Below are positions 4,127 to 46,270 of a stretch of DNA of 64,000 nt, in pieces (position 1 is the stretch's first letter; each line of letters starts with the position of its first letter). The notes beneath the pieces were generated by a model. The model was not told where the DNA came from. It was given only the letters and a program-made list of their open reading frames with translations, and did not search any database. The position numbers and the translations under genes were made by a program. Source of the DNA: Lingula anatina (lineage: Eukaryota > Animalia > Brachiopoda); the NCBI GenBank assembly GCA_051362555.1, contig CM120646.1, forward strand, positions 2,418,001 through 2,482,000, read 5' to 3'.

Positions 4127-4172
<46 letters not shown>

Positions 4173-8322: not shown

Positions 8323-8355
<33 letters not shown>

Positions 8356-10961: not shown

Positions 10962-11000
<39 letters not shown>

Positions 11001-18356: not shown

Positions 18357-18594
18357 GGCTTCGTTCACATGCAATGTCTATTTTCTATTTTCGGTATGTC
18401 TTATGATCACGGTCTGTGCACTGAATATCCCGCGGCGTAATTACTGGCAGCGCGAGCCAGTTCCTATAAGTTACTATAAGTAACTGGCTCGCGCTGCCAG
18501 TAATTACGCGGCGGGATATTCAGTGCACAGACCGTGATCATAAGACATACCGAAAATAGAAAATAGAAAATAGACATTGCATGTGAACGAAGCC
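18357..18594. mobile_element. Near-perfect palindromic MITE (PIF/Harbinger-like), 238 bp
   Basis: TTA|GGCTTCGTTCACATGC ... GCATGTGAACGAAGCC|TTA; the arms pair almost to the centre. The central part recurs at about 48903-48968. Confidence 0.9.
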
Positions 18595-20384: not shown

Positions 20385-20570
20385 TAAAATACATTGTAAC
20401 ATTGTTATTACAATACCATTAACAATGTATCATTCCAACCAAAATTACAGCTCCAGTGACCATACAATACAAATACATTGTATCCTAACAATATCAAATG
20501 TATCATATTTATAAATACATTGTATCTTAACAATAGGAAATGTATCATAATTTGTGATAATACAATGTAA
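20385..20570. repeat. Degenerate AT-rich tandem repeat (aaatacattgtatc..aacaat) in the putative 3'UTR
   Basis: Several imperfect copies visible. Confidence 0.5.
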
Positions 20571-21688: not shown

Positions 21689-24600
21689 TCACACAGCAGT
21701 TTCCTCTCCAGGCGACTGGAAAATAGTATAAATAAAAAGAGATTTAAACATGGAGAGGAAAATGACAACTCTTCAATTTGGCAGGAAAAGTGTCATAAAA
21801 TGGACTTTGCTGGGGTAGAAGACAAATTCCCCACACTTTTCAATGGTTACTGAATCTGTTACTACATACTAATTTATTAATTCATAATAATAATCTCTTA
21901 AAAGATTATTATGGAGGGTTGCAAACTATGAAGATCCAAGTGGTCCAATGCTGAGCAAAGACTTCACAATAACTGCAAAAACTGCCGTTTTGGTGGTAAA
22001 AAGGAATTTATTATATATTCATAACTATAAGATACACAAGTCCTTTTTATATTTTTTTGTTTAAAAAGATATAATACAGTTCATTGAAAATAATGGAAAA
22101 CTGTATTTTCAATAGCAAAAATTCTAGTCAGGAGATTTTTTTCAATGCTTTGTTTTAATATAAATAATTAGATGAGGGATCAACACATCACTTCCCATAG
22201 GTGGAAACACTTTACATGCATTTTTACCATTTTAGTTGGTCAGTATTTGATACCATTGATAACATCCTGATACAAGTGTTTTCATTCCCACTGGTATTCC
22301 AACAATAATAACACTGGGATTAAAAATTCTCTAACGAGGTCCTTTTGAAAGATTATTAAATCAGACTTCAACTGAGGCGGAATTCATGACGTCATTAGAA
22401 AAGTTCGAATACTGCCATTTTGTCTGTGGAAAGGCAAAAATAATTTTTCCCAAAATGTTTTCATTAATATCTATATGTAAACCATTCACAAGCACATTTG
22501 TGATACTTCTTTTAATTATAAAATAAAGAAATACTTCTTTTAATTATAGAATAAAAAAATGATTTATCCAACAAAATGGAACAGAAAATGAATGTTCAAG
22601 ATTACGAGTCAACAACAAACCATGCTCAACTTTATACTGACAAGCAGAAAATTCATGTTTCTGAAAATCAATGTAAGCAATGGGATACACTATTTTTACA
22701 AGACAAGCAAATAATACATATATAAAAATATACCAACTTTATTCCAAAATATTTAAAAATCACAATGCATTAAGACACACAGTCGTATCACACATTTGGC
22801 ATAATCAGAATTGAGCAAATAAATATTTTGCAGAACAGAGAGAACCTGATTGTATCAAAAATTTCTTCACATGAATCATGGTACAAAATGCTGGTCACAT
22901 TAATCAGTGAGTACCCCACAGTCTGAACATGACTAGAACACTATCACCCCATTCTCATAGATTAGATCGACCTACATTGGATCGACCTAACTCCCTGGGG
23001 GTTCACGCTAAATAGCTGTCAGCCGGGCGGACACGAAAGTTAATTACCCCTTAAAGCTTGTAGTAGGAGGGGACGGACACTTAAGGGGGATTATCTGACA
23101 GTAATCTAGTGAGACTCCCCGCGGTGATAGATCGATCTAAAAGTTGTGAGAACAGAGCATATGACACTTCATCATACAACTTAAGTTACATTATTATGTA
23201 AGTAACTCTAATTAATAAGCAAACACAATCCATTTTCTGATCTGAAACATCTTTGATTAGCAGACTGTCCTATCCTATCCTGCCCCTCCCATTCAATACA
23301 CAAACATACCTTGCAAATAACGGTCTAAATAGGGCTAATCCTTCGGGGGAAATAAAAAAAAAAACTTTACCAAAGAAGACTCCCTGTACCAAGTACCATC
23401 TTAATAAGCCATTTGATACAAGTCACCCAAAGCCTGAAAAGAACTAACCTCAGCTTTACTTTGAAAGTTAACATTTTGGTTTCCCTCTTTATCCCCACCT
23501 TTCTTGTTTGTCACCTTTGATGTCGCCTTCCAGTTGAGTTTTAACTGGGGCAGTTTTCCATTACCTCTATTAGACTGAATGTAAACTTTTTCAAGAGATG
23601 ATGTGGTCTTCCCATTGTGTTTATGTTTACTTTGAGATGGGGACTCAATTGGTGGGAATTTTAAACGGGTATTTGGAGGACTCTCAGTTCGAGGAACACC
23701 ATCCCAATAAAGCTTATTCGTATTAAGAACACGGGAAACATTTCCCCCACCAGGGACATAAGACACATTCTCAAGTGATGCAATCTTACTCTTGGCTGTC
23801 CATTTGACTTTTTTCCTAGGAATTTTCTTCTTTCCCCCACCAGGTACATGACTAGCGTTATCTAGAGAGCCTATCTTGGACTTATACCTCCAATTTAAAC
23901 TATGGTCCTGGATCTGAACATTTCCACCCCCAGGTACATGGGAGATTTTATCAAGGGACCCTATTTTTGATTCCTTTTTCCACTGCAGTTTTCTGTTCTC
24001 TATTTTCTTGTCACCACCTCCAGGGATGTGGCCCACATTATCCAGGGACCCAACTTTTGAAACAATTCTCCACTTTGGAATAGAATCAGAGATAACAAAA
24101 GTTCCCCCACCTGGAATATGAGACACATTATCAAGAGAACCAATTTTTGCCTGAGTGTTCCACTCAAGCTTCTGGTTCTCAATTTTAGCGTTACCCCCAC
24201 CAGGAGAATGGCTGATATTATCCAAAGATCCAATTTTAGACTTGCCCCTCCAGAAAAGCCTTCGATCTTGAATTTTTGTCATACCACCAGCAGGAATATG
24301 GTGAAGATTGTCTAAAGAGCCAACTTTTGATTCTTGAGACCACTTTATTTTTTTAGTCTCAACTTTTATATTACCCCCTCCAGGTATATGACTTGCATTT
24401 TCAAGGGAACCAACTTTTGATTTTGCTCTTCCAGAATATAAACTTCTGACTTCAATTCTAACATTCCCTCCACCTGGAGAGTGGGATGCATTGTCTAATG
24501 AACCAATTTTTGAACCTGCATTCCATTTTAATTTCTTGCTCTCTATTTTTTTGTCCCCTCCTCGAGGGGTATGATCTACATTTTCTAAAGAACCAATTTT

Positions 24601-27600
24601 TGATTTTGACGTCCAGTTAAGTTTTTTGTCCTCAATCTTAATGTCTCCTCCCCTTGGTGAATGGGATATATTGTCCAATGAGCCAATTTTTGATTCCGTT
24701 TGCCACTTTAGTTTTCTACTTTGTATTTTAACCTGGCCCCCTCCAGGAACATGGTCTACATTGTCCAAGGACCCAACCTTTGCTTCATTTCTCCATCTTA
24801 GAGTTCTCTCTTCTATCTGTACATTCCCACCCCCTGGTTCATGGTGGTAGTTGTCCAGGGACCCCACTTTGGAGCCTGACTGCCATGATGGCTTTTCACT
24901 CTTAATTTTGAAGTTGCCGCCACCTGGTTTATGGTTCAATTTTTCCAGAGAACCAACTTTGGCATTTGACTTCCAATCAGTACTATTGGTTTCTATGGCA
25001 ACATTACCTCCGCCTGGCTGATGGTGATAGTTATCCAATGAACCAACTTTGGCAGTTTTATTCCACTTGGTATTGTGGTGAATTATACTGACATTACCAC
25101 CGCCGGCTTTGTGGTTTATATTGTCCAAGGAACGCACTTTTGCCTCTGCTTCCCACCTCAGAGGGGTCCTATACACCATGTATCTGTAACCAGAGAGAGA
25201 CGATGTATCATCTCCACTGCCATTGGTGGAATGGTTTTCATTTTTTGCTGTCTTTTGACTCATGTTTTCACGCCTCACCAACTCTGGGTTGTCCTTTGCG
25301 TACACAGAATATTTCCAAAACATTAGGGATCCAAATCCATTTCAAAACTTCACTTTTGTTCTAGTTACTCATAGTTCTTACAGAATTCATGGTATTCCTT
25401 TTCACATCCAAAAATCAAATGCTCTACCTGTTTAAATGAAACATTTTTGTTATTAAATTAACATGTTTTGTGTCCTCTTGTGCAAATGAAAAAGAAAAAG
25501 TAATATGCTAACTGAAATGGTGAGAGTACCATGGGTTATGACATGCTGTCTCCTCTGTGTTCCATTATTTGTTCCCTAAACACATTCCTCAAAAGGTTCA
25601 TAAACATGAATGACATTCTTTTAAGCAGGTATGAATTTCCATGTCATGCTCCTCATGTCTTGCTGTCCACAATGTTTCAATACAACTGTATATTCACACC
25701 CTTAATCTCTGCCTGCACTATTTACGTGTGATAACTTGGTGATAATCCAACTGATCTTAATTCGATAATTAACCAGACGTCAGGTCAGTAGCATGTGAAA
25801 GGTTATAGCTTAAATCCTTTCGAGTCAAATAAGATAATCCTCTTGTGCTTGATAAGTCAGAAGCACGTACACAAGGATACCTCTCATCCGCTGGTAAATG
25901 TCAATATGATGAGGGAATTTGTACTGTGTTCTGTGCAACTTTGGTCTAAATGTCAATTTAATGCTTTGGTGTCCCTTCTTCACACTGCAGATTAATTTCC
26001 CCTGGTATTTTAAGTGCAGGGTTTATCTAAATAGTGAGATCTCTTAGTTGTAAGTTAAATGACTTGGAATGTTCACGTTTCTTCTGTAGTGTTCAAGAAA
26101 TGTTCATATTTCAATCTTGAACACTGCTACAATATTTGGTCTCATCTTTTCAATAAAGCAACAGTTATTTGTTTTCCCTCACTGTTATTGACTTTTTTTT
26201 TTTTTTGGGGGGGGGGGGGAGGGAGAACAGTATAACTAAATATGCACTCTTTGCACAAATCTCTCCATTACTGTCTTATAGCAGGTGCGTTAGTGATAAA
26301 TGCCTTTTCATAAGTCTCATTGATTTTCCCATCCCCCATTATTGATTAACTGGCACATCCAAATAAACTACAAAATGACTTTCATTAAAATGTATCTTCA
26401 AATCCCCCCTGCAGTTACCAAGCAATCTATCCTTATGAAAATCCTACATAATCTACTAGCAGCATCCTGCAGTATCCTTATATAAATTGTTGCAGTAATT
26501 CATGGGTACTTCATTGCTATTTATCATTAATAAAGATAGTACGATTATTTCCAGGTATATAGAATTAATGCATCTTTCACTATAATCTTCTACCTGTAAA
26601 TGTACCATAAAAAACCAAGGTCTAAATTATCATCTTCTCCTGTGGAGTAATATATAAGATTACCCTATAATTGGGACAAGTGAGACTAATATGCTATCAG
26701 TCAACTAATGTAATCTTACGTAGACAGAACATTTACAGTAAACAGCACACAGCTGTTGGAGATAAACGTCCCTGTTTAGGTACCAAGACAAAGCTGCTCT
26801 TTCAAACTGTCTTGAGAGAAATTTCCACTGAGTTAATGTCTCTGCTCCTGCCTTAGTAAACTTCCAGGTTTCTTCAGTGCAGCCAATTTTTTTTAAATTC
26901 CAGTCTTCGACTTAATTTATTGTAATAGAAAACAATGGTTCCTAATTGTTTTCATGTAACACTGTGCTAACTGGTTTTCTGTTTCAATCTACATCCACCT
27001 TGAAGTTAAGTTGCTTATCAGCATCCATAGGGGGGAACTCTTTCTGAAAATAATTTTAAAAAATTAGTCAATATTTAAAATAGTCTCATTATGCTACACA
27101 AATAAGGCATTAACTATTGGTATCTCAGAAAATATATTTATGTCAGAAAATGATGCCTTTTAAACAACTTAAAAATATTAAATCAGAGAATTCACAGTAA
27201 CTGTTCCTTTACTGGAGACAAATTCTACATGGGTCTGTGAAAAAAAAAGGACCTACTAGTATGACCAAATAAGAGTGCACTTCTTTCAGATTACCAATTT
27301 CACAACTCATATGAAAATGTTAAATTAAATGTAAATGATGCAAATATAAATAAAATGTTTCCATGTACTTCATTAAAAACAAAATGTTTCTTATTATAGG
27401 TGATATAATGCCAAAGTGCCTTTTAAATGTAAGAAATATTTATCAACTAGGTGATTTTAATGGCTTGTTTCTTTCTGCTTTACATATATCTGCCTACAAG
27501 TAGCATTTGCATGGAGTCCTTTCTCTATTAAGTATACTCAAGGAAATGGCTAAATTGACACCATTATGAGGGGAAATGCACGAAACGATGCAAGAGAATT

Positions 27601-30600
27601 AAAATTTTCTGTGTCAAAACAATAATCGATAATATGCGAGCAATGCTGATTGTGTGATCCATTACTGAGATTCCTGGCGACAATGCCACATCAAATACAA
27701 TATATGTCTATTTAATATGTGAATAATCAGGAATGCGAAAAAATTAATAGAAATTGTTGGGCCATTAGTTATTATTAAATAGTAACTGCAAATGGTAAAA
27801 GGTAGAGAAAGATGGAAATGATTTTTTCCATGGCTTGAACTAGAGTGATGATACTGATATAATACTGAATGTTTGCAATGAAAAATCCACTCTTATTTTA
27901 TGAAAATTTAATCAAGGTTTTAAAATCAAGATTGACATTAACTTTGCTATACCACCAGATAAACACTTCTAACTACCTTTTTTTTCAAAAATGGAAAGGT
28001 CAGTATATTTGAACAATTGACCATTTTGCCTGGGACACATTAAAAAATCAATCTTCTTTTGTTCTCAAATATTTGAGGACATGTCAGCATTTGAAACATT
28101 TAAGTTTGGCAAATATATAAATGCTAAATGTTTAAGTTGGATAGAGGAAGGGGAAATATTGTAACCATGGTGGCTGAGGGATGTGAATTGATGACCAGAT
28201 AAACATTGTGGAAAAAGTGGCCATTTTGTTCATGTGGACTGTGCAAAGTTATGGAACATTGGTCGTAAAAATACAGTTATGGGAGGTCTGTAGGTTTTAC
28301 AGTTGGGAAGTGCTAATAGACCTCAAATATGTTTGCATAGTAATTATAAGTGTCCCAAAGTCCTATACATGAGAATAAAATAGTAAAAGAAATAACAATG
28401 GATGAAAACACAATACTCAAAACAAGACATAATAGTTTAAAAAAAAAAGGGTGAAAATTTGCTTACCAAATTGAGTTGGAATTTCCTTCAACTGATGTTG
28501 TCCATTTGTGTCATTTCTTCAGTCTAAGAATGTTGTCTTTTTCAATCAAGATCAGCTACTGCTCACTTGGTGATAACAGTTGTACACAGACAACTCCGTA
28601 ACGGTTGTTACACTTATGAAGTCCTTAAGCACAAAAGAGATGTCCCTCGCTTCCTTGTTTTCCACCTGTTAATTATGTTAAGTGATCACCATAGCAACGA
28701 AAGTTCAGCAGAAATAGGATTGTTTTTTGAAATAGTTCATATCCCTTACATTCTCTTCTCCCACTCCATGAATGACTGGATGATTCAGGAAGGTTTTCGA
28801 TCCAGATAATAACGTCATCAATAATTTAATTGAATTACCCGAATGTTATTTTCCTCACAATACAAAGTCTTCGTTGTAATATGTAACAAGTAATTTCCCT
28901 GCAGTCAATAGTCTGATAGACTTTTTTTTTGAAATCCCAGTTTTTTTTCCCCTGCTACATTTATAGTTATGTTTGTATAAGTTGATACATGTGCACAGGG
29001 AAAACACTATGCCAATTGTTTGCTACGGCAAAAAATGAAGTCAATATTGAAACAATGTATGGCAACTTTTAGCAAACAAATAATTTCTTTCGAGCAAATA
29101 TTTGGCTTTATACCGTAAGGAAAAGGTAATTTGCTCTACAGTTTGAATGCTTATTAGTCAAAAGGTCTTCAGCTTTCTTTCTTCGCAATAGATGACCCTT
29201 GCGTGGAATTACCAAGGTATCCTATATGTTTCTTTCATTACTCTTTGAAAAAATTACGATATAGCTCAAAACTGTGATGTTCCTTTACACACTGTTTTTG
29301 ACTGATCATGTCACAACATTTAAACAGTATCAGCCATTGTCTGGTTTCATATTATTACAACTAGCTCCGACTCGATGTGTATAGATGGAAACGATCCAAT
29401 ATCTCTTTTCTACATCTCCTATCCCTCCTTCTCACTTATATCCAATATCTCTTTTCTACATCTCCTATCCCTCCTTCTCACTTAATGGACATAATCCACT
29501 TCAAGTCAGTGCCATCACGTTTTTTCCTCTGTAGGTACACGTTTCTATCTACCGGTGTAGAAAAGTCTAATGCTCCAAAGAATCGGTGCAGTCCCCAAAG
29601 TCAATAGTTACAACAAACAGAGCGGACAGGTTTGATACTGTTACTAATTAGACTGTGTGGTTCCTACTCTCAAGGTCATCTTCCTCTGGCCCCTTTGAAA
29701 ATCAATATTTGGGGCAGGGGGGGAGGTAAGGAGGAAGGGAGAAGTAGATAATCTTTTACCCAGACAAGTGACTGCTTTGGAGAGGATTGTGCAGCATTTT
29801 ATGAAGATTAATGCAGCTCCAAAACCCCCTTTTTTTAAATTCAGATAAAATTTAATGCTCAGGCAGAAAATAAATTTGAATAAGTAAGGACTTCTTGCAC
29901 ACCCTCTCCCACCAGTAGAATAACCTGCCATGTTTTAACAGTATGGACATCTTTTATACACATATCAACACATACTGGTCCCAATACACGCAGTGGAATG
30001 TTTCAACATTAAGCAATGAAAATAAATAAAAGTGAAAAGGCAGCATTATCGAGTCAATACAATAAAATCTACAGGAAAAGGGAGTCTTTTCTTGGTAAAT
30101 ACAATACAATTAGTGAACACACTTGGTCATTGTGAATTGGCTGTAAATCTACAATGGTGCATTATGGAGTCGATTAGGTGTGAATGGAGGGACCAACTCT
30201 GAGATGATCTGCAGACTAAATCAATGCCACGACCACGCGGGTCAGTGATTTCCTTAAAAGTAGAGCCAAAGTGACACAAAAGATAGAGACTTATGGGATC
30301 TTTATCGTAATATGTTATTCTGCTTTTTAAGGTATTGATTTAATTGTGCATTAACATGGTCGCAGAAAGTGTAATAAATGCAATATATTAGGTTAAGGTG
30401 TGTAAGTGTGTTTTGCACCCACACCTGTTGTTGTTTTTAGTGTAAATGCGAGCAAGAAATTTATACCGTGATTTAGATTGCTTTTTCAACAGCCTCACCA
30501 TAAACAACTGTATACTATTAATATTAATTTCAAACAAAGAGGGCATACTCTTATAAAGTATGAACTATGCATCCCACATGAAATAAATTACTATTAAAGA

Positions 30601-31434
30601 TTTGAAACAATTCTAAACAATTTCCAAAAGAGTTGATAAAAATACATCATCTATAAAATTTCTGGGAAGTTGGTTTTTAGAAACAATTCATGTTTTCAAG
30701 ATATCCCATCAGGGCTTTAATGGGAAATTTAATTATCCTACTCAAAATTGATCGGTCGAGCCATCCCTGTATTTGGATCAAATGACATTGTTTTAAAGAA
30801 TCTTTACAAAATAATTTAGTTCTAAACGTGTGGTTAGATACTGTATTTAGACTGCCACAGACTTCTTGACATTTCAGAAGGAAATATCGCTGCAGGTACT
30901 TTTGGTTACTGGGCTTTGGCATTTTAAAGGTCTGAATAAGGAAAGATAAGTAGCTCTGTAGGATATTAAGAAACAAAATATGATTCTGCAACATTAAAAA
31001 GCCTAAAGCATATTTTAAACTTTACCAATTTCCCACTATACAAGAACATAGCAGGTTTGGGTTTGGCTTTCCTGTCACTTAGCATTAATAACCAGGGTGA
31101 AATATTCAAATAAAATAAATCAATAGATAAAATCTCTCCACTTCCCACCTCTGGAATGAAGTTTTATGATACTGGGATACTAATAAATGCAACATCTAAT
31201 ATATCAAATGTCATTACTGTTCTATATTAACAGCAATGTTTTAATAAATTGTTCATACCAGTTTGCAAAGCCATTCATAACCCAGTAAGGCTTTCATGGA
31301 TATAGCATAATTGTATTTTATTTAAGTTCCATCCCCACACGCAATAATTATACCAAACATTTATGGAAAATTTGTGGGCAATTTCAGCCAAAAAAAAAAA
31401 ATAATAATAATAATAAATAAATAAAAAATAATTA

Positions 31435-31485
<51 letters not shown>

Positions 31486-34400
31486 AATTATTGCATACCT
31501 GTATTTCTTGCACATCTTGGATGTCACCAACACTGCTGCCTCCTTCAGTTGATTTTGGAGACTTGGGTGGAGTGTCCAAGGAACCAACCTTTGCGTGGGC
31601 TTTCTCTTTGAAGTCTAGTTTATGAGATTCAATCTAAAAAAAAAAAAATTAGCAATTAGTTAATAATATGACACATGAGATGCCCTGACACATTTATGCA
31701 AAGATTTAGAATTAGTATAACTAGGTTTTCACTTTTCTTTTCCAAGTATTTTTACTACTGATATAAAAAATGTTTAACTTCTTGTATTAGAACATACATG
31801 TATTCAAGACAACAAAAATATTGTACATCAAATGCACCTCTTATCATCGAGAGACACAACTGTCTTAGATTAACACATCTGTAAATTCACTAGATCATTA
31901 CATACTGCCTCTTTGCCCAAGGAAGTCACTGGTTTTAAACAGATTAAATCTCAGCTTCGAGGTTTTAATTGCTAGGCCCCTGCAGCAACAACCTGTGTAG
32001 AGTCAGGGAGACCATCAAGGAATTAGCAGCATTGTTTTTTAAGTGGGGTCGGCCATATTTAGTCAGCCAATCAATAAGTCTGCGGATCATCTGTGCTTAA
32101 TGTGCTCAACCTCTATATATAGGAAGTCCCAGGCCATTTGGCAACAATTAAGCTACAATCCCTACCTTTTTGTCCCCTCCTCCAGCTTTGTGGGTTATAT
32201 TATCTTTGGATCCAACTTTTGAATGGGCTTTATCTTTAAAATCCAACTTCCTGCTCTCAATCTAGAAAACACATTAAAAAACCTCATTAAAAACAGCCAC
32301 AGTAAGTAGATGTGATGACCACTGTGACTAAAGGTCTCACAGTTCATTTGACGGGCAAACCATGTTATATGAATGTCAAAAATTCAAGATGTCATGATTG
32401 ACAGAAGACAACATGCAAAGTGCACATACACATGCATGTTGAGGAACATTCAAATAAAAACATTTTAAACGACAAGCTCATGGAGGAATAAAAAATCAAA
32501 GTTGTTAATTAGAATTGTAATTTAATTACAGAACATGCCCACAGACAATATTAAGTCACTTCTCTGTATTTACTGTGATATCACATACAAGGAGCTGAAT
32601 GCGACAGGTGAGATTTTACTAACGCAATGGTTGTGACAATATGATTTCTCAAACCATGGAAGGTGAGGCTACTTTTGATCCTTCAAAATTTTCTCAATTA
32701 TAATTCAGATATAAATTAAATAAAATCCACAACAACAAAAATATAATTTTGTTAGTTGATCACTAATATTCTATCAAACCACTAGTTCTACAGAATATTA
32801 GTTCTCACGTAGCTAATAACTGCCTACACATTCAAAGGTAAAGTGCACATTCAAATTGTCCCAGGGTAGTCTGTTCTTATGAATTCTTGTACTCTCTTTT
32901 ATTTTTACCATGATAATCATCAAGGGTTTCAAAAGTCATCCCAGTATTGATTAATACTTAACAACAGATATGAACATTTTGAGAATTGCAACCCTGGTCA
33001 CAAAACAGTTAATAAACAAACAAACAAAAAATAAAGAGTTTCAATTTGGAAATTAGGGCAGTTAGGAAATGGAATTGGACACTTTGCTTAGTTGGAAGTC
33101 CAGCCATAATGAAAAGAATGACTAACAATGTGTAAACCACAAACTGAAATAACAGAGATAACGTTCAGGTGAAGAATCTGAAGAACTGTTTTAGAGAGAA
33201 TCACTGCAGATCTTTACAAATTGAGACATCTGTTGACCAAGGATCACTTTATGACACATCAAAGATGGGATAGATGGTGACAGTGAGAATAACAACTGCA
33301 CTCTCAAACCTTTCTATCAACTCAGAGTTAGATAATACAGCTAATTAAGAATACTGCACATATCACTTAGAAGTTGGAGGGTATCACAGTAGAGTAAGTG
33401 CACGTTAAGATAAAAACTAAGTACATGGCTACTATATTAGACACTGGTCAGATTCAGCATAATTCACAGCCATTAGAAATATAGCAGATGCTGTACACTG
33501 TAAGAGAGACAAGGTGTCTGCTAGACACATCACTGCAAACTCTGAGTCAGTCTAAGTTCACACTGCAAGCTGTAAGCTACACTAGAGCTACATATTTACT
33601 TGAACAGTGCCTCCGCCAGCCACATGCTCGGCATTCTCCAAGGAACCAACTTTGGACTGGGCATGCTCACTGAACTCCAACTTCTCGCTGAAGATCTTTT
33701 TGTCACCTCCAGATGGAGTATGAGTAGAGTTTTCAAGAGAGCCAATACGAGAATGAGCTCTTTCGCTGAAATCTACTTTCTCATGGTGAATCTGGACATG
33801 CCCACCCCCTGCTGTGTGATGGGCATTTTCCAGAGATCCAACTTTAGACTGGGCATGATCCTTAAATTCAAGTTTTTCATCATGGATTTTGACTTTCCCC
33901 CCTCCAGGTTTGTGATCAGCTTTCTCTAAGGACCCTATGCGGGAGTGAGCCCTCTCTTTAAAACCCAATTTCTCATCGTGAATTTTGACTTTCCCGCCAC
34001 CAGGTGTGTGAGTGGTATTTTCAAGAGAGCCAATACGAGACTGAGCATTGACTTGGACTTTCTCATTGAAGATTTTCTTCTCGCCACCTCCTGCTTTGTG
34101 ACTGGCATTTTCAAGGGAGCCGACCCTGGAGTGAGCTCGCTCTTTGAAATCTAGTTTCTCGTTGTGTATTTTGACATCGCCCCCAGAGGGTGTGTGTTGT
34201 GCATTATCAAGCGAGCCAATGCGGGAATCTGCACGCCATTCAAGCTTTTCATCATGTATCTGAACAGCAGGGAGGAAACAAAGGGATTAAGCTGGGAGCG
34301 AGCAATCTGAAAACAACTGATGCTTTCTGGTCCTTTGATATTCAAGTTTTAGAAAAATCTTCATTTTCTCTTTGCATTTTGTTACTTGACCATGAATGTT

Positions 34401-37400
34401 TTTGATAAAAAAAATTAAAAAAAAAAAAAAAAGATAAATTAAACAAGGTGCACAAGGCTAGTTAAAGCTTTTACTCAATTATAGGCAATAACAGACTATT
34501 TCTTTTAGGAAATCATCATATCATCTTATATCATAAGGATCAGAAAGGATCAATTTCCCTCAAAAATTGTTAAAAAAACTAAACAATTTTCATGAACAAG
34601 ACAGTGTATAACACATCTCTGTTGTGCAATTTGGTTAATACAGACTAACGAGGATGCATGTCATTTCAATCAAAACTGAGGGGTGACATTACATGTGACA
34701 TGCATTACTGAAACTAAAAAATTTATTTGACATTCATTTTTTAAAAATGAACAAATATTTTCTCATTTACTGTAATATAAAAGTTCAAGAATATAAGCCA
34801 TAAAATAGTATGTCAATATAGAAGACAAAACAGCTTCCGTCGGTTTTACCACTTATCACTGAAAAAAAAATCACTTATACTACATTAAACCTACCTAGAT
34901 TTTCACCTGGTTTCCCATAAATGCCTTTTACCATGCATCTTAATTTATTTCATACATAACAAATGCTGCAGACTATCTTTTAACAATCTGATCACAGTAG
35001 TCAAAGATAGTATTGCAAGAAGGTAAAAATGTTTAGTCAATTCTGTATATGGTGGTTGCTTGTTTGTTTACTCTGAATCTAGACTTAAACCATTCACATA
35101 TCCACACAGCACAAAGAAAATGTCAGATTATGCAGAATGTCAGTACAGATGAAAGGTTGAAAGAGAAAGAAAGAAAGAAACATGAACAAACAGGTGCTGT
35201 AATTGCTCAAATTCTGTGACATTTTTTTCCAACTTTTGTTAATGAATTGTTTTTCAAAAAGTAATGAGTGAGCTAACCAAACTATTAATACATGTTAAGT
35301 TCTGACATTTAACTAAGGACACATCCTTGCTCAAATTGTGATAATTTAACTAGGACAGACAATATAAAATGCCCCTCCCCCTTAATAAATGCCCGCAGAC
35401 TTAATTTGTGAAGTAAGTAAAATAAAGAGGTTTACGCTGAAACATTTTTAAAATAGTAAAATGATAGCACTGTCACAGTTTCAGATAATTTGTGTATCAA
35501 GTGTAGACAAGTTTTAAAATGAAAACCATCAGCCTCAAAAACAACAAATAAATGGTTAACAAAATTGTCACATGTCATAAATTATGTCATATAGGTGTAA
35601 AAAATAAGATCGCAATTTTTGTAAGAGTTTGCAAAAATAACTGAACACCTAAACATGCCAGAATGTTGCACATATAAAGCACCCAGTTCAAATAAAAAGC
35701 GTTCACATTTACTAAGAGTGTTAATTATCAAGCTGACAAAAGTGAAGAAGTAACTATCTACCCTAGAATCTAACTAGAAAATGCAGTGTTTTTCCCCACA
35801 TTACATGGACCAAAAGCAGGTCCAGTTATGACATTTGAACACTTTGCTAAATGCAGAACCACATCTTGCAATGGTAGTGACAGTGCAAGGAACTACAAAG
35901 TAAAATAAAAATTACCTTGACTTTTCCACCTCCAGGTACATGACGGTTATTTTCTAAGGAGCCAACTTTGGAACCTGCATTCCACTCTAACTTCTCACAG
36001 TGAATCTGTTATTTTTATTTATCAACAGAAGAAAAAAAATACTTTCCTATTAAAAATAGCTAAAGTATGATTCTTGTTTTCTTTTTTAAAATTTAATTTA
36101 AAACAATCAAATACCTTTCATCCTGCCTCCCAGACTTATGACCCTGATAAACTTATGTTTGAAACGTTAACATATCACATTGATTATTGACTAGAACATG
36201 TATAAAAAAAACCTCTGCAACGGCAAAGAAATTGTGAAATCTTTGAAAATATTATTTACTTCCTAAAATATTACATCAAAATAATAGCTTGCAATTTATC
36301 ATAGGCTATATCTTCAAACCCCCTTACAATATCCAAGTAAAATTTTTGCTTATTGGCATGTTCCACTCAAAAAACAATATACAGTATGTTAAAACATAGA
36401 CCTTCAATTTACTGTGTCTCGATATTTTTCATTTTTTACAAATAGCATTATGGGTAGAGAATGGATAATACATGGTAAGAGGATGCTAAGAAAAAGGCTG
36501 CGAAATAAACCAGGGAAGATATAAAAAGCAGGACACATGCATTCTTATGTCACCAGCTCAATGCACAGGTTATTAACTCCCCCCCCCCCCCCCCCAAAAA
36601 AAAAAAAAAAAATGTTTGAGCATTGAAAAAAAACTTATATTTGAGGTGTTATTCTATTCTGAGCAGGTCAATGACCAAATGCTTTACCTGCTCAATGGTA
36701 TGCATGACATCACCACTAGACAGAATCTTCCATTCAATATTTTATTTCTGTTTCCCGTCCACATTCTAGTGGGAGTCCCAATAAATCCTTACCTTTTTAT
36801 CACCACCGCCTGCTTTGTGCTTAGCATTTTCTAGTGAGCCCACTTTGGATTCTGCCTTCCATTCTATTTTCCTGTCTTCAATCTGGTTCAACAAAAGAAC
36901 CAACCAAAACCCTTGTTACTTTTGAAACTCAATTAAAAGGATAGCTCAGCCAATAAAGATCTTTGTTAGAAGCTAGATGGAAATCTATTAGTATTTCATG
37001 AACCATATACTAGTAGCTATATACAGGAAAGCATAGTCAATTTAACCTTTTGTTATTATGAAAATAGAAATTTAAGAAATGGAAAATTAATTGTCTTTCA
37101 GATGCGATCAATATATTTTACTCAAGATCAGAGATGAGACTAAAAAAAGTATTGTCCCTTCATTTCCACCCCCAGGTGAAATTCCAAAAGTACCCACAAC
37201 TACCTTTTTGGTCCCGCCTCCAGGCTTATGTTTTGCGTTGTCCAGCGATCCTACTTTGCTTTCTACTTTCCATTCAAGTTTTTTGCTTTCAATCTGAAAA
37301 TCAACATACAAAGCAAGCTAAATAAAATGGCACAAAATGCAATGCACATGCAATGCTGGGTTCACACAACATCATTTATCTTTCTTCTTACAGTTTAAAA

Positions 37401-40400
37401 TATCAACAAGGTATTAACCTAATAGCAAAAGCACAAAGTAATTTTTTGGGGAAATTGTGGACAGTTCAACAAATCTTTTTATCATTACTTATAACAGGTA
37501 TAAAGAATTTTTTCAGCAACTCATAGAAATCATTATGAAAGCGTGAGCCCAGCATGCAAATAGGGGGAGCACAAAACAAGACAAGCCTGGGCTTCAAATA
37601 GCACATGTCAGTTTTCAAACATTACTGCAAAATTAAAGCAATCATACCATTCACATTAATGCAATCAAACAGGTAATTCAAATACAGAACTGAACCACAT
37701 CTTTGATTGGAACTGACGACATCTCATTTCAATAAAGGCAATCAAACAAATCAGTATCCTTCTTAAATTCTTGGCAGAAGGATGAAATACATGTAATCTT
37801 CTTGAGAACATTGTGATGAGAAAATTCATGGTGTAGGTGTCTAGAATAATATCCCAAGCTTCAATCCACATTTTTTAATTTCCTGCACAGCAGAGTCAGA
37901 GGAGTAGATCCAATCCTTATCATCATACAGAGAGCAAAGTATCCTTAACAATAACAGCTCAATGGGGAAGATAAACTTGCTTGCCACTAGGTGTCACTTC
38001 TGTCTGCCCATTGCTATCACTATAGTTTTTTTTATTACCTAGATCTCACTCACTGAGAATTATCCTAACACGTAGGGGTATATGAACTTCAACTTAGTCA
38101 GCCTTCCATTGATTATATGTTTAGTTTGTTGGCAAAATAACTATCCTCATATCAAACATTATACTTTTGGGCACCTGATTATTACTTTTAATAAATTTCT
38201 GATACACCTTTCTTTCCTTTTTATCTTTTACTTTTCAATGATTTATCATTTTCAGACACTCATGGAAATTTACTTTTTTGACAGAAAATTCACTCTTCAA
38301 AACTTTTAAAGCAACAATTTAAAGTATCACAAACAAAATTGTAAGTGGAAAGCTACTAATGCATACTAGTCAATTATAAAATAAAAATTGTAACCCATAC
38401 TTAGCTTCAGGCAAGTGAAGAAAACGACTTCACAAAAATTTGTTTTTTTTAGCACAAACTACAAGAAAGGTACTTAAGTAGAGTGTTGATCTTTAAGTAA
38501 TAACAAAAATTACTGAGATCCCCAAAGAACATTTAGTAATTTCACTTCCTTTCTTTTTGGCAGTTTCCTACCTTTTTATCCCCTCCTGCTGCTTTATGTT
38601 TTATGTTGTCTTTCGATCCACACTTGCTCTGAACATTGCTGACATCTATCTTCTGACTGGTCACCTTGACCTAAATAAACAACAACATAACCATGTAACA
38701 TGTGGTTGGTCAATTTATCTATAGAACACCACCACCACCACTATGCAATGCAATATTTTTAGCATAATAATTATAATAATTTTTTGCAACTTTGAAGCAA
38801 AATCTTTAAATCAATGTCCCATTTCTGCCATGAGTTCCTGCGGCCAGACACACTCCGTTGTTTATCAGGCCACCTCTTCAAGACACCAATCTATTCACTC
38901 AGGTGGTCTGCTGCTGGGCTGGTGCTCATCTGACCACAACAATCTTTACTTGTGTCAACTGTTACCTGTCCTCCTCCAGGGGTGTGCTTGGCATTGTCCA
39001 TGGAACCAATCTTTGACTTGACATTCTTCAGTGCGGGACTGACACCACTTCCTGGCCTTGCACTTGTCGGTCTTGCACTTGCTAAAATTTTAACATGACT
39101 GTCATTCACATACTAAGATATTTACATTGCCTTTAAGACAAAGAAAAAGTAATAATGCTGATATACCTGCTTATCATACTAAAAATAAACATTAAACTTT
39201 TACAATATCTACATAATGTACATGTGATAATGTCAAGAGGGGAGGATTAGACCAAACAAGCCCTCAAGGTTTAGGCTAACCTTGGTCTCTTGACACACAG
39301 AGAAGTCTGTAAGAAAGATCTAAAAAAATCTAATGTACAATTTTTCCAACCATTACACAAGGCTCCTACCAGTTCTGGGAGAGATCTCAGCCCCTTCCTT
39401 TCTGGGCGAGGGTGTCTTTCTCGGTGACGTAGAGCTAGGAGTTCGTGGTGAAGTATTCAGACGTGCCGACGTGGGTCTTGCTGGTTTGGTGGCAGGGGTA
39501 GTAGCTGTCTTGGCCGTTTCTGGCCGTGATGTCTTAGTTGCAGCCGGGGTTGTCTTGGGTGCAGCTGGTCTTGGAGATTTTGTAGCCGTTTTGGGACGTT
39601 CAGGGGTGGCGCCACCTGGTGTTGAGGTTTTCTTTGCCTCCAGTCGACTGGCAGTAGCTGAAGGTGCACCTCTTGCTGGGGTTGTCTGTCAAAACAGGTA
39701 CAACTTTTACCACAATATCAGAAATTTAAAAAAAATCATAGCGAATTTGATGCAATTTATTCCTTATTCTGGACTATTTCCATTACTCAGAACATATATT
39801 TATTTTTACAGGTTAGAATTGAAACTGTTTTTTTAATTGGTCTGTATCATCTATCTTAAATCTATCAAAAACCTCAACAAAATCATGACAGAGTTTGAAA
39901 ATGACTATATGACCATATCACCTCTCTAGGGGCTTACCTTCTTAGCTCCAGACTTGTCATCTTCTACCCCACTGTCTGAAGACGTCCCATCTGTAATGTT
40001 TTGTTTCAATAGTTAAAAAACTGATAACGCCCACTGCTAGACAATATCCAAAAAAGGTCCCCTGTGAATCATGAATGGCATTCAAATAAAGATGTAAACC
40101 AACTAATTTAATAATCTTAATACCCAAAGCACTCAAGTATTTCCTTCCTCACTCAGATTCAAAACAAACATGACTGAATGTTTTCAATACTTTTTTGCTA
40201 GACCACAAATTATCAAACATAGAAATCCTACAGCCACCAGAAATTCTACCTAATTAAAATGTTTGAACTTTAGTTGAACTGAAAACATTCAGTCTACATT
40301 TGAGATGGCAAAACCCAACATAACTTTCACTTCTGTTGGAACCTACCATGGTCTGGACTCATTGTTAGCCAGTGTATGAACTGATAGAGAACAAAACCAA

Positions 40401-43400
40401 AGAACTGACCACAGGCTTTGACCTTTAAATGGCACCAGCTCTCCACAAGACTTTATCAGAAGACCTGTGTGGGTAAATCTAGTGCATTTCTCTTCCTTAA
40501 GATATCTTTGTGAAATAACGAGAAAAAGGATATTATCTGAAGAAGACTGAACTGAAATTATGAGCTTTGGTGCCCATTGCATTCATTTGTAAACTCAGCT
40601 ATATTAGCCGATCTATCTAGCTTTCAAAGATAACAAATATATCCTCTCCACCCCTAAAAAAAGCCTATCTTGTCTTTAGCCTGTGGCCATTTCTAATCAT
40701 ACCAGCATGCTTTCATTTAAGGTTAAATGATACCAATTATGTTTTTTTTTTCACAAACTCTTTCTTAGGCTTTTTTCATCAACATTCAATTCATAATTGG
40801 CAAGGGGGGGGGGGCTTCTAAAATAATAAAAATACAGACATGCCCTTGAAGTTAGCACCAATCAATAGCAGTCCTAAACCATACCAGTTCCAGTTTAAAT
40901 GGCATGCACATTACTAATGTGGTACACGTTGCAGAGAATTGACATTTCTAAGCATTACAAGAAACAAACAATCAAATAAATAAATCATCATAAAACCTAA
41001 AAACAGTGCTATTTAAGTGGAACAATGTACCAAATGACAGTATGAAATGACATATCACTTTTCTAATCTACAATTCACTGTACAACATGCAGTAGCTGAG
41101 TATTTTGTTAAAAACAAACAACCATGTGACGGACACATAACATTTACATGGACACAACATTATGACAATAAACAAGCAACATAAACATGCATGGAACATA
41201 ATATAACTTCCGTATGGCGAAAGCTGCCACTCTCAGAGGAGCTAGGCAAAGGAACTGTGAGAAATTAACAATTGTTGCCTAAGGATAAATAAAAACATGC
41301 ATTAATAAACAAGATATTGTGGGTTTTACACCAGTGTAAATAGAATCTGAAAAGTGCAATTTTTCTGTTTCCAATCTTGCTATTGGTGTGTTGAAAGTAA
41401 TTTTTTCATGACGATTTGAACTTGTGTGTTTGTTTTAGACTCATTAAGTCCAACATGACTAAATATTCATTTTATTTGCCAGTAAATTTCTTTTCGAACA
41501 TGTAATTTACTTTACTTGTTGTTCATAAAATCTAATAAATCACATGAAATTTTACAAAGATTCATTCAAAATAATTACTTGCTTTACAAAACCCCAAGTC
41601 TTGGAAAGCAAAATTAACTTGAGCAAAAAACAAAGCATTGCAGAAAGATTATACTTTATGCATGAATTTCAGTGCTGCAACAAAATGAAGCAGTCAGCAA
41701 AAGCCAGAAGTATTTCAGCCACTTAGCAATTGGCAGTCAGAAATATTGCAAAAGCCAGACTATTGTTAACATGAATGGTGACAAGCACTGCTACCCGTAA
41801 TATGAACTCTCAAGCTGTAAGCACCCTGAATAGTAGGGTGAGTAGGAAACAGTTTTACAATAATAGATGCCTTCACTGATACCTCTAGAACACTTGGTAC
41901 ATTGTAACATGTTAAGCTAATGGCCGGAATAAATCTAGATGTATCAGCTATCCATTTTCAAAAGACATGGTGCAGAACTGTAGAGTTTTTACACAATGAA
42001 CAGAAAACGCCACCATTCATGGGCAAAATGCATCATTCACTAATACATTACAACACTGGGACAATGCAGGATCAACACTGATGCAACAGCAGGATAATGC
42101 AGGATCAAGACTTGTATAAAATTGAGAGACAATATGACAGATGCAAAAATCAAAGCACATTTGGCACCTTTTTTCTTTCTCAGTGGCACCTTGGCACCAG
42201 GTGCAGCAGGCCTATCTCTCCCTGGGGCACGGGGGGTGGGGGCTTTCCTGGGGGCGGCAGATTTGGTGGGTGGGGCAGATGCAGGGGGTGGCTTAGAAGT
42301 TTTAGATGTAGGGGGAACTTTCTGTATTGGCTTAGTTGTGGTGGGTGGGACCTTCTGTATTGGCTTGGTACTGCTCTTTGTTGGCTTTGGTTTTTGTTTT
42401 GGTGCTTCATCTGTAGTGACAGTTTTGGGCACCGGGGGCTTAATGACCTGGTCATTGCTAAAGCTCTCCTCCATAGTGGAGGGGGCCTCGCTCCCCCACT
42501 GGACAGCCGTACTGTACTGGTCATCCATGTCAGGTTTGGCCTCATCGGAGGCTGGACTTTGGTCCAACTGACCAGTAGACTTTTTACTATCACAGACAAC
42601 AGCTTCAGCCTCTGGATCCTTCACCTCTGTGGGCTCAGGTTCTGGGGGCACCATTTCCTCAGGGGTAGACTCTTGGGGACCTGTTTCTGGTACTTCAGAT
42701 TCTGGGAGTTCAGATTCTGAAGGGTAAGATTCAGGGGCCTCCGGCTCAAGAGGAGAAGCCATTTCTTTTTCTTCTAATTGAGCAGACTTTTCTCTATGTT
42801 CGCCAGAAATATGACTCAAGCTCTCATTACCAGGCATTTGATCAGACTGAACCAGCTTCTCAAGCTGCACAAATTCCTGGGATTCGCTCTCGGGAAGATT
42901 TGGACTCTGGGGGGTGGGAGATACCACATCCTCATCTGGAGTCACAACATCTTCCTCTTCATGAAGATCATGATCACCTTCGTGTTCACGGTCATCATGA
43001 AATTGTTCTGGGGCAAGGGGTTCTTGGGTGGGAGAATATTCATCCTCTCCCCTCTCTGGAACCACTGGGGGCTGGGGAGTTGGAGAAGGGGGACCCTCAG
43101 GAATTAGGTCAACTTCTTGACTTTCATGGGATTCAACATCAACATCGGCAGGGGCACCTGTAGATTCCTGTTCAGGGCTGACTGGTTGGGTGGGTAAATC
43201 ATGTTCAGGGCCATACTGTTCACCATTATCAAAGCCAACCTGCTCCTCTGCCCTACCAGCACATGGCTGTCTACTTAACTCCTCCTCCTCCTCCTCACCA
43301 TAAACTCCCTCAGCTTCCAAATCTAAATTAGAGGCTTGTTTTTCAGATTCCTCATTTTCATACTTCATCTCAGTGTCAAAGTCGGGCTCACGATGAGCAT

Positions 43401-46270
43401 GCTTTTCAAATTCTGTCAGATCGGGTTGAGCAGGACAGTATGCCTCTTGGGCAACATCAGGTTGGGTTGGAGAGTACACTTCCTGTCGAGAGCCTACAAC
43501 TTCCTGTGAGCTGCTCTCATTGAGATCTAACTGCTCTTCATACTGATCCACATCAGAGGCCTTATCATCAGGGGCAGGGGATGCTTGAGGAATGGACAAA
43601 TCACCCAATAAATCAGGTTTGGGAGCATGTTCCTCGGTGGGCGTCAAAGATTCCTCAGCCTCTGGAGTTAGAGGGGGGCTATTTCTGTTGTACAGGCCCT
43701 CCTCTCCCTCCGTCTCTGGCCTGCTGTCTTCCACAGCTGGGTCATAGGGGTTAAGGAATGGATTGTTGTTTTCTCTGACCAGACTGGCACCAGAGCATGG
43801 TGGCTGATCAGGGGAGGGGGACACATTCTCATTAGCCCAGTGCTCTGTGACAAAGGGAGATGAGGTGTCTGCGTGACGCTCCTCCTCTGAGGGAAGAGCG
43901 TCCCCAACAAAGCTCCCAGTCATAAGATCAGTGCCAGATTCCATGGGGCTTTCTGCACCGTCTGGTTGGGACGCAGAGTCTTCCTGGCCAGAAGGGGTGT
44001 CACTAGGAAGGAAGTCATTCTCATACTGTTCAGGGGCTCCGTCAGGTGACCCCTGGGAATCCCCCGGGGTTGGGCTACCCTCTTCCTGGTCAATTCTGTC
44101 ATTCAAGAAAGGGTTATTATTTTGGAGATGCTCAGGAGAACTTACTGCAGGGGGAGATATGGGGATCCCAGGCTCTGCTTGAAGGGGGACCAGGGGTTCT
44201 TGGCCAAAACCAAATTGATTCAAGGGATTCATCACAATGGCATGGTCCTCACTCGGCCTAGATGCTGTGCCTGGGTCAAAGGTCAAAAGGTCATCAATGT
44301 TGTGACCTTGGGTTGTGGGTCTATCAACAAAAGAGTCATATTGGGGGGATTTTGAGACATGGAGGTCAGATGGGGCGCCCCCTACGGGAGAGACCTGCTC
44401 ATCATTTCCATGGACACCATTCACTCCATTAAAACCCGTGTTTTCTGGAAAGAATACAAATTGACAGCAGATTAGTAAACTTGAAAGATTTCGAAAGTTT
44501 TCGGACATAGTATCTGCACATATTTGTGAAAATTTCATTTGGTTATGGTAGAAAAATGTACAGTAAAAAGTATAACTCGTTTCAATCTCTCCAAAAGGTC
44601 CATTTATAAGCAATTATTATCTGGGCACCTATATGCCATACTGTTCTGTCAAAACAAGCTTTAGCCTCATATCACACAGCAACGTATGTGCACGGGATCA
44701 TTTGGCGAAACCCTTTCAGAGCATTTTGAAATATCACCATCTTCAGGGACTATAAATCATGTTTTCCAAATTCTCTTTGTTTCGAGAAGATTCAGCAGCA
44801 TAACGTTCAAAGAACTATTATCATTTTAAGTGAATGGAATTCTTCTCCATGGTAGTGATGTAACATAGGGAAAGTCCATTAATTCAACAGTCTTCAATTC
44901 AGTCTCTAGCTGTAAGGGCAATCGATATATCATAAATGATCTGAATAAAAATACCAAATGGCCCATACCATCAGTATACTGCATATACCATTCACAGAAA
45001 ACCACTGCCTATGTAAATACTCCATGATAAATAATTCCTCATGACATATTTTTCTTTCTTTCCTAAAATAACACATGAATTTTTTTGGGGTCTTAAATAT
45101 CAAAGCATTTGGCAAGCAATCAATGCCCCAGCCATGCCACCTGTAATGATTTAGACAAACAGTTCGATAAAATGTATCAGACGGATGTGGAAGAGTAAAT
45201 TCTCACCCTCAATTACGTCAGCAGACAACATAATGAATTCAGAAATGTCTTAAATGTCCGTAATTCTATCTTTCCCACAAACAGGTCCCACTGTGGCAAG
45301 ACATTTATAAGAAAAACCCTGATGTAATAGTCTTCACATCTGGTGATGTATTCTGGATTTCAAATTGTTAATGTTTACAGTCAGAATACAAGTGTCTCCA
45401 GAATGTAAGTCCACCAGTTTTAAAGGTCTATTTTGGATTCTGTTTATCTTAAATTAGTCTGATGTTCTCTTATGTAAGCCGCCATGAGAAAAATCGAAAC
45501 CTGAAACACTTCTGCCAGAATGTTGTTGGTGTATTGGAATGTCCAATAATTACAATGAATTTGCCCACTTTTCCAGGAAAAATCAATTAAGTTGTCTGAT
45601 GTTTGCTGGGATAGAACAAATTCTTGAATGGGTCCGAAAAGTATTGCATAACGGTCTAGTCTCTCCTATCACTCAAGAATTATCAACAAGCCTTTTTACT
45701 ACTCAATATCTTCATCTATAATGATAAAATTAAAAGTATATCATTTGGGAATATTTTGTGCTAGCAAGTCAAGTTGAAGCACAGGTCACACTTTCAGTTG
45801 AAATTGAAATTTTTTTTATCCGAAATGTTTCCAGGACATGAGATATCTTTATTTCATGCAAATACTGATGTTTACTGACCAATCTGTTCTGAAAGATATA
45901 TATCTATTATATATACAACTGTATTTATCCATCTGAAACCAAAAGATGCATATTAAGAAAAGCAGATATATTTCATGTTCTTTAAAAAATAAAAAAGGTC
46001 CAATTATCACCTTTATTGAGCCTCATTTTTTTCACCAGCAACAGGACATTTTATTCTAAAATATGTATTGACCATGTGGTTTGTAGCTGTGTAAGTTATA
46101 TATAACCAGAGATAAACTTATGATCTTAACATTGCTGTCATCATTGCCAATATGAATCAACATACGTTTCAAAGAAAATTAAAATAAGGACACTGCTTCT
46201 TCACCATACCTTGAAGATTATTCTGCTGAACTGCTTCTGCTGGCGCATCATCTACTGCAGTGTCCGCCAT
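21689..46270 (-). CDS. MAP2/tau/MAP4-family microtubule-associated protein, about 1369 aa, 13 repeats plus R'
   Basis: Phase-compatible GT-AG exons: 46270-46210 (MADTAV.., aaaATGG), 44444-42168 (acidic projection domain), 39990-39938, 39685-39370 (Pro/Thr/basic), 39081-38966 (R1 [21 protein letters not shown]), 38670-38572 (R2 [15 protein letters not shown]), 37293-37204, 36882-36793, 36005-35916, 34259-33600 (7 repeats), 32261-32166, 31633-31499 (R' [15 protein letters not shown]), 21715-21689 (SPGEETAV*, least certain). Confidence 0.88.
22942..23160 (-). mobile_element. MITE family X, copy 3 (inverted)
   Basis: Reverse complement of copies 1, 2, 4 and 5; ends somewhat decayed. Confidence 0.82.
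23401..25323 (-). CDS. Intronless tau-repeat-only protein, 640 aa, 16 tubulin-binding repeats, nested in the MAP gene's last intron
   Basis: Uninterrupted 1923-nt ORF with 16 K[IV]GSL[DE]N..H.PGGG-type repeats at about 30-aa period, plus degenerate ones. In-frame TGA at 25342-25344 upstream of the ATG; candidate acceptor at 25428/25427. Confidence 0.85.
   Translation of the reverse strand: MFWKYSVYAKDNPELVRRENMSQKTAKNENHSTNGSGDDTSSLSGYRYMVYRTPLRWEAEAKVRSLDNINHKAGGGNVSIIHHNTKWNKTAKVGSLDNYHHQPGGGNVAIETNSTDWKSNAKVGSLEKLNHKPGGGNFKIKSEKPSWQSGSKVGSLDNYHHEPGGGNVQIEERTLRWRNEAKVGSLDNVDHVPGGGQVKIQSRKLKWQTESKIGSLDNISHSPRGGDIKIEDKKLNWTSKSKIGSLENVDHTPRGGDKKIESKKLKWNAGSKIGSLDNASHSPGGGNVRIEVRSLYSGRAKSKVGSLENASHIPGGGNIKVETKKIKWSQESKVGSLDNLHHIPAGGMTKIQDRRLFWRGKSKIGSLDNISHSPGGGNAKIENQKLEWNTQAKIGSLDNVSHIPGGGTFVISDSIPKWRIVSKVGSLDNVGHIPGGGDKKIENRKLQWKKESKIGSLDKISHVPGGGNVQIQDHSLNWRYKSKIGSLDNASHVPGGGKKKIPRKKVKWTAKSKIASLENVSYVPGGGNVSRVLNTNKLYWDGVPRTESPPNTRLKFPPIESPSQSKHKHNGKTTSSLEKVYIQSNRGNGKLPQLKLNWKATSKVTNKKGGDKEGNQNVNFQSKAEVSSFQALGDLYQMAY
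28467..28700 (-). promoter_or_regulatory. Candidate internal promoter / first non-coding exon for the nested tau-repeat ORF
   Basis: X-box-like GTTGCTATGGTGAT (28698-28685), MYB-like TAACGG (28599-28604) and CAACTG, donor ttg|gtaagc at 28467/28466. Confidence 0.35.
29394..29485. repeat. About 46-bp direct tandem duplication
   Basis: atccaatatctcttttctacatctcctatccctccttctcactta occurs twice back to back. Confidence 0.9.
31410..31485. repeat. (TAAA)n microsatellite next to the R' exon donor
   Basis: Direct reading of the sequence. Confidence 0.95.

Follow-up and report, generated by a model that had tools for sequence, protein, structure and literature searches.

An intronless 16-repeat tau-family reading frame in the last intron of the tau gene of Lingula anatina

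Here we report the analysis of an intronless open reading frame (ORF) of the MAP2/tau family that lies within the last intron of the tau gene of the brachiopod Lingula anatina. The ORF is located in a 64,000-nucleotide (nt) stretch of genomic DNA (contig CM120646.1, positions 2,418,001 to 2,482,000), hereafter the window, where it occupies positions 25323-23401 on the minus strand and encodes 640 amino acids (aa). This tau-family frame within tau is real, under selection and unannotated, and it likely belongs to an arrangement that is more widespread among lophotrochozoans. With a probability of about 0.55, we consider it a separate gene that descended from a lophotrochozoan nested tau with tryptophan-bearing (Trp-type) repeats and encodes a projection-less microtubule coat. 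Sequence comparison makes a common descent of the nested genes likely, and the tau-inside-tau layout is likely old, shared with molluscs and so far overlooked. In the accessible text of two surveys of tau evolution (PMC4815063, PMC8985376), domains are counted per protein and invertebrate tau is used as a simple outgroup. A second tau kept inside tau across phyla would, if true, change the picture of tau evolution, and may explain part of the repeat excess of molluscs. The ORF also fills an annotation gap, as no public protein record of it was found in protein database searches. Its 16 cysteine-free 30-residue repeats without a projection domain form a natural test of tau multivalency, in which the scaling of affinity, motor blocking, condensation and aggregation with repeat number can be asked, together with the contribution of Trp.

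The nested reading frame and its host

The ORF contains 16 stretches of PF00418 (E 3.5e-155) and no other Pfam family, and its PF00418 score of 503.9 bits, where the cut-off is 27, places it among proteins with MAP2/tau family repeats. The 16 tandem tubulin-binding repeats (aa 50-535; 23719..25176, minus strand) have a period of 30 aa, with a spacing of 30 aa in 14 of the 15 intervals and of 31 aa in one. The K-x-G-S core is present in 14 of the 16 repeats, one of the other two having Arg and the other Ala in place of Gly. Trp is found in 15 repeats, the exception being repeat 9, which is a 31-aa unit. A degenerate repeat 17 is located in the C-terminal tail (approximately aa 573-604; 23512..23607, minus strand), where BLASTP matches to tau repeats are weak (E 0.001-0.04). 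The protein is basic (pI ~10.0; 105 Lys and Arg vs 58 Asp and Glu) and free of Cys; its N-terminus of 49 aa contains one Pro, its tail comprises 105 aa, and neither a projection domain nor a Pro-rich domain is present. The original prediction, made from the letters of the window, had described such a frame of 16 basic Trp-bearing repeats without these two domains, and it is confirmed by the Pfam content and composition; it had also called the ORF AT-rich, which does not agree with a base composition of 41% GC. The canonical MAP2/tau architecture of projection plus Pro-rich domain is absent from the ORF and is obtained only if the ORF is fused to the host. An AlphaFold prediction for the repeat region gave a pLDDT of 36, with every one of the 486 residues below 50 (the underlying alignment had just 17 rows); this missing fold would match the expectation for tau and is uninformative alone.

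The ORF is under purifying selection at the codon level. Among 17 sites that differ in RNA reads from four runs, 14 are synonymous and 3 are nonsynonymous, giving a pN/pS of 0.06, which is not near 1; within the repeats, 12 of 13 differences are synonymous (P ~1e-7). Each variant site is backed by few reads, most by 3-4 reads from 2-3 starts. Read errors, however, would not favour third positions. The repeats had been described as diverged yet stop-free, and both parts of the description hold: the cores have a mean DNA identity of 61% (maximum 74%), all 640 codons are intact, and the chance of such a stop-free run at the stop frequency of the neighbouring intron is ~3e-18. The synonymous mismatch among the ORF repeats is 0.59 vs ~0.63 at saturation. 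A recent processed retrocopy of the host exons is excluded, because the cores share at most 72% DNA identity with the Trp-type host repeats R3-R5 and synonymous sites are saturated (mismatch 0.63-0.68).

The host model comprises 13 exons on the minus strand, from 46270 to 21689, with an open frame and 13 repeats. Over its first 905 aa, the model has 99.2% identity with RefSeq XP_013402001.1, the L. anatina tau, and by this match the host is the L. anatina tau gene. All six RefSeq isoforms examined (from a cluster of seven) join the exon 31633-31499 to the 21715 exon, which places the ORF wholly inside the last intron (21716..31498, minus strand; 9783 nt, GT-AG ends, phase 0) and on the host strand, in agreement with the nesting that was originally proposed. 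The last coding exon (21689..21715, minus strand) contains eight codons and the stop, and the 3' untranslated region (UTR) reaches at least to 20201. No direct 31499-21715 read joint is among the joints listed, the (AAAT)n tract at 31384-31494 being masked and the adjacent rows dropped.

Nine RNA runs were taken by species label, and eight of them were used (X1, X2, X4-X9; 6-30% of each). In X4 and X7, the depth of the host 3' UTR (~10-17) equals that of the penultimate exon, which agrees with the 21715 exon as the main host end. The ORF is not the main host end, because its depth in X5, X8 and X9 is 1-4% of that over the penultimate exon (2-4% in X8 and X9). The expression of the ORF is weak, with a depth of 0-3.6 over the eight runs and zero ORF reads in X2 over 23536-25536. 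In the stranded runs X1, X4, X5 and X6, the ORF reads run in the host direction. The oligo-dT runs X8 and X9 have ~16 and ~10 reads on the 2.3 kb of the ORF vs ~3 and ~1 on 6 kb of the upstream intron, although these two runs come from a diverged population and their mapping to the intron could be lowered. As a separate observation, over window positions 20201-40200 the UTR sequence of X7-X9 reads departs from the window by several percent and includes indels and fixed differences; the same species label may therefore cover a diverged population or a cryptic species.

Relatives in other animals

A metagenome scan with the ORF alone gave 173 candidates, none of which was confirmed. Of two alignments, A1 was too diverse for use and A2 led to 55 loci, of which nine were inspected for host exons by motif scan and four by tblastn. 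L004 (8683 nt) is the sole inspected locus in which host exons flank the nested ORF on both sides. It contains a single-repeat tau exon (619-714, bounded by AG...GT), an intronless nested ORF of 519 aa and 11 repeats in the last tau intron (3418-4977), and, with its stop codon, the tau terminal exon (7027-7098); all three lie on the same strand. L004 and the window both have an intronless Trp-type multi-repeat ORF on the same strand in the last tau intron. The two-protein tau locus proposed for Lingula is supported. Upstream of the L004 terminal exon, by 44 nt, we noted a short duplicate of its acceptor and first nine codons (6983-7009).

Tandem intronless Trp-type ORFs are found in two further loci, with 6 and 12 repeats in L002 (1073-2599, 5845-7203) and with 10 and 7 repeats in L003 (2653-4065, 8516-9865). 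The second ORF type of L002 matches the first of L003, and these sequences suggest a cluster of three ORF types in some animals. The L001 frame (1-2709), which is cut by the contig end, continues into a long tail with a host-like pseudo-repeat at its end; the 16 repeats of the Lingula ORF are a high number but not unique in kind, because L001 has at least 14. A Trp-periodic tau-like frame of 540 aa in L012 (37-1656) has a period of 29-33 residues and mostly degenerate cores.

In protein searches, the closest representative protein is the host itself, matched via its repeats. The best three matches in the class of 352-1120 aa are 39% identical to the ORF, and no close relative was found among shorter proteins. 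In a scan of 287 proteins, a count of 16 repeats was reached by the ORF alone; the host model and a sea-urchin protein have 13 each. The baseline of 3-5 repeats assumed in the original prediction was too low. Teleost tau has 5-7 repeats, owing to exon duplications inside the canonical protein (PMC4815063, available part), and mollusc tau has 7-10 (PMC8985376, which in its accessible portion gives domain counts only, has no Lingula row in the supplement, and does not mention nesting). These proteins and the 13-repeat Lytechinus protein XP_063952560.1 resemble the ORF in a repeat number well above the mammalian 3-4. Trp-type units occur once or twice per canonical tau in five of five arthropod and nematode proteins checked and in none of five echinoderm, tunicate and fish proteins; Trp itself is therefore an ordinary protostome trait.

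A family of short tau proteins is found in gastropods and bivalves; its members have no projection domain, carry 6-8 repeats that are mostly of the Trp type, and have a conserved motif at the N-terminus. A comparable short protein is present in a nemertean. The mollusc proteins (XP_046580165.1, XP_052803372.1, XP_045207177.2, KAL8559910.1 and XP_021368827.1) resemble the ORF in lacking a projection domain and in having mostly Trp-type 30-aa repeats, but differ from it in the lower repeat number, an insert after repeat 2, and the N-terminal motif. Labelled tau-like, MAP2-like or MAP4-like, they are annotated apart from tau and stand beside it by accession or contig. The short protein and canonical tau report a same-sized contig in all six species having both, and have neighbouring accessions or tags in three of the six: in Haliotis rubra XP_046580165 follows XP_046580151-164, in Mya arenaria XP_052803372 follows XP_052803362-371, and in Nucella lapillus ACOMHN_016956 follows 016955. 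For Mercenaria and Dreissena, accessions could not be compared. None of six mollusc pairs has a stretch identical to the host (three of the N-terminal cuts included repeats, giving 29-75% matches), and by these comparisons the mollusc short proteins have N-termini of their own. The Batillaria model of the short protein ends in a host-type terminal exon. We found no published account of the mollusc short Trp-type proteins, which are known from database annotation alone. On sequence features, the ORF appears related in kind to this family, and we do not file it as a member.

Compared with known systems, the ORF shares with MAP2, tau and MAP4 (PF00418; human tau PDB 6CVN, 7PQC) tandem basic KxGS...H.PGGG repeats in register. 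These proteins have 3-4 repeats of 31-32 aa vs 16 of 30 aa with Trp in the ORF, which, unlike them, has no projection or Pro-rich region, no Cys and a single coding exon, and is nested in another tau. Saitohin (STH), in intron 11 of human MAPT, is likewise an intronless single-exon frame nested in tau; it differs in overlapping LINE2/LTR elements and in being primate-limited, and the available text of PMC4815063 does not describe it as a tau-repeat protein. The planarian Smed-MAPT-L2 and -L3 are extra spiralian tau paralogues enriched in testis; unlike the ORF they have 3-4 repeats, their knockdown gave no spermatogenesis defect, and the accessible part of PMC6743461, the source of these data, says nothing of nesting. 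No published description of a tau paralogue nested in tau was found in a literature search of incomplete coverage.

Origin and alternative explanations

The layout of L004, and probably that of molluscs, together with the synonymous saturation against R3-R5, points to an origin older than the local, lineage-specific amplification or retrocopy invoked in the original prediction. We propose that an intronless copy of the host Trp-type repeat block would have entered the last intron before the brachiopod-mollusc split, would have gained its own start, and may then have shifted its repeat number by lineage, to 6-8 in molluscs, 10-12 in L002-L004 and 16 in Lingula. A position-specific classifier trained without Lingula leans to the nested type for 10 of 15 ORF repeats, and assigns four of four Lingula host Trp repeats to the host type; in leave-one-out tests, 51 of 54 and 103 of 107 assignments were correct. 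A broken mollusc-type N-terminus above the ATG was considered and rejected, the three upstream frames having no convincing match. A broader version of this scenario is tentative: a lophotrochozoan cassette predating the brachiopod-mollusc split, with one to three intronless, projection-less Trp-type taus in the last tau intron, transcribed on their own in tissue with ultrastable microtubules (e.g., sperm or cilia), of which Lingula would be the extreme, a staple of ~130 nm.

Several observations weigh against a separate gene of shared descent. The nested ORF stands after the pseudo-repeat exon in Lingula and before it in L004 and Batillaria, and no host exon is in view in L002 and L003. The N-terminus of the ORF matched nothing among the 480 proteins and the loci examined, and the mollusc N-terminal motif and the insert after repeat 2 are absent from both the ORF and the three frames upstream. 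In Haliotis cracherodii the accessions of the short protein and tau are 304 apart, four of the six same-contig mollusc cases involve chromosome-scale contigs, and a second Nucella copy is located on another contig. Regarding tissue expression of the mollusc relatives, six accessions were absent from main texts, and the supplements of PMC6708199 and PMC13219418, in the parts available, held nothing relevant. Five of the 15 ORF repeats score host-like, and the classifier favours the more diverse class, hence its result is a lean only; in a repeat tree of 83 units and 29 columns, 5 of 80 branches are starred. In the RNA data, no splice joint, start or end of a nested RNA was found in the eight runs, and a rare 31499-to-ORF splice could be hidden by the masked (AAAT)n. 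The ORF depth of X5 is at intron level. In X6, coverage is low but unbroken over 23150-27150 and patchy farther upstream in the intron, and in X7 positions 25537-26870 are covered; the intron coverage of X6 and X7 fits unspliced pre-mRNA or a long unspliced leader.

In one alternative, the nested gene is likewise separate and has the same predicted function, but arose independently in brachiopods by amplification of host Trp repeats, the mollusc and L004 genes being parallel cases. The differing position relative to the pseudo-repeat exon, the lack of a common N-terminal motif and the sparsely starred tree all speak for it, as does the amino acid identity of the ORF repeats, which are as near to R3-R5 (60%) as to each other (58%); the host itself has built a seven-repeat exon by internal amplification. 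We nevertheless regard an independent origin as rather improbable, since Lingula and L004 agree in the last intron, strand, intronless structure, Trp type and 30-aa period, since the classifier leans the other way, and since the saturation of synonymous sites against R3-R5 would make any local origin old.

The start of the ORF bears on a second, similarly doubtful alternative, in which host transcripts would occasionally end in the ORF: the phase-0 donor of a repeat exon would be spliced to it as an alternative last exon, giving a giant tau with as many as 29 repeats. As originally stated, an in-frame TGA (25342..25344, minus strand) stands seven codons above the ATG. The first ATG, which has a weak context, is followed by a second in-frame ATG at 25263 with a better one (A at -3), from which the product would be 620 aa. 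The claim that no obvious phase-0 acceptor exists was not borne out: below the stop, phase-0 AGs are found at 25293, 25281 and 25251, and the candidate acceptor with first exon base 25293 (25293..25315, minus strand) has 9 of 15 pyrimidines, within the range of 3-13 (of 15) of 12 host acceptors, making in-frame fusion to host repeat exons possible. The acceptor originally suggested for a non-coding 5' exon (25427..25449, minus strand) has 8 of 15. Joints touching the ORF, 25427, 25293 or 21715 are absent from those listed, a blank that counts as no evidence. Of the original proposal of independent transcription from the host strand, the strand agrees with the stranded reads and independence remains a proposal, with no joint at 25427 or the ORF listed and a phase-0 candidate at hand. 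The host repeat exons are all phase 0 and heavily alternatively spliced, and joints at 31499 are masked, which also favours the alternative exon. On the other side, none of the six RefSeq isoforms contains it, no host-ORF fused protein is found among the best 150 library matches, annotation treats the mollusc relatives, which have N-termini of their own, as separate genes, and AGs near the L004 ORF start are mostly out of phase. Finally, the ORF could be a remnant that is decaying or is not translated, with reads derived from intronic pre-mRNA. This would be in line with the low depth in all runs, with X5, with the equal coverage of intron and ORF in X6, and with the missing protein record, but is very improbable given the pN/pS, a 640-codon frame kept intact despite synonymous saturation of its repeats, and the restriction of X8 and X9 reads to the ORF.

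Predicted function and other features of the window

The ORF repeats align in register with human tau, including the core motifs (E 1e-38), and their Trp lies in the linker at the position of tau's hydrophobic residue, with a deletion of 1-2 residues. A tubulin dimer is 8 nm long. According to the available part of a cryo-EM study (10.1101/267153), a tau repeat is extended along the protofilament crest with ~27 ordered and 3-4 linking residues, and microtubule affinity rises with repeat number. By analogy with tau, we infer that the ORF protein is disordered and basic, and that it would bind microtubules. Each 30-aa unit would lie extended on the protofilament ridge across one tubulin dimer, so that the 16 units together could hold as many as 16 dimers (~130 nm) with high avidity. 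As it has no projection arm, the protein would act as a coat that stabilises the lattice, and the spacing of microtubules would be left to the host protein. A tissue-restricted role in very stable microtubules, in sperm or cilia, is a guess, made because of the low expression in the runs and the testis-enriched planarian paralogues.

The first coding exon of the host (46210-46270) and its projection-domain exon (42168-44444) were placed by the 906-aa match to XP_013402001.1 (together 42168..46270, minus strand, as are all host exons). They are followed by Pro-rich exons (39370-39685 and 39938-39990, within 39370..39990) and by the repeat exons R1 (38966..39081) and R2 (38572..38670), all supported by RNA joints. 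Single-repeat Trp-type exons R3 (37204..37293) and R4 (36793..36882) also have RNA joints; R5 (35916..36005) is placed by sequence, with no RNA joint among those listed. The seven-repeat exon R6-R12 (33600..34259) is neutral and His-rich, is mostly skipped in the RNA runs, and is included in RefSeq isoform X3. R13 (32166..32261) has RNA joints, and the penultimate exon (31499..31633), with a truncated pseudo-repeat and tail, is connected by the joint 31633-32166 and has a depth of ~6-46. Overall, eight host exons are confirmed by RNA joints, and R3-R12 are often skipped. The seven-repeat exon differs from other tau repeats in composition (33 Lys and Arg, 33 Asp and Glu, 20 His); its depth is at most 1, and joints from 32261 reach R2, R3 or R4. 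This exon may encode a binding cassette that is sensitive to pH.

An interspersed element of ~200 nt lies just below the ORF stop (22941-23150). Four further copies, with 84-91% identity, lie near 6473, 16552, 53945 and 58433 of the window, and RNA reads that originate from other loci contain the element in great abundance. Elsewhere in the window, duplicated exons of a folate-receptor-family gene are found at 682-11292 (minus strand), with PF03024 at 8290-8595, near-copies at 1082-1420, and paired signal-peptide exons at 4108-4437 and 10951-11292, a sequence pattern that suggests a tandem pair. A 36-nt tandem array of 17.8 copies with 98% matches (12286-12925) is open in several frames. A long, near-perfect inverted repeat, identified by eye, is located at 18400-18580, and part of it occurs again near 48900-48960.

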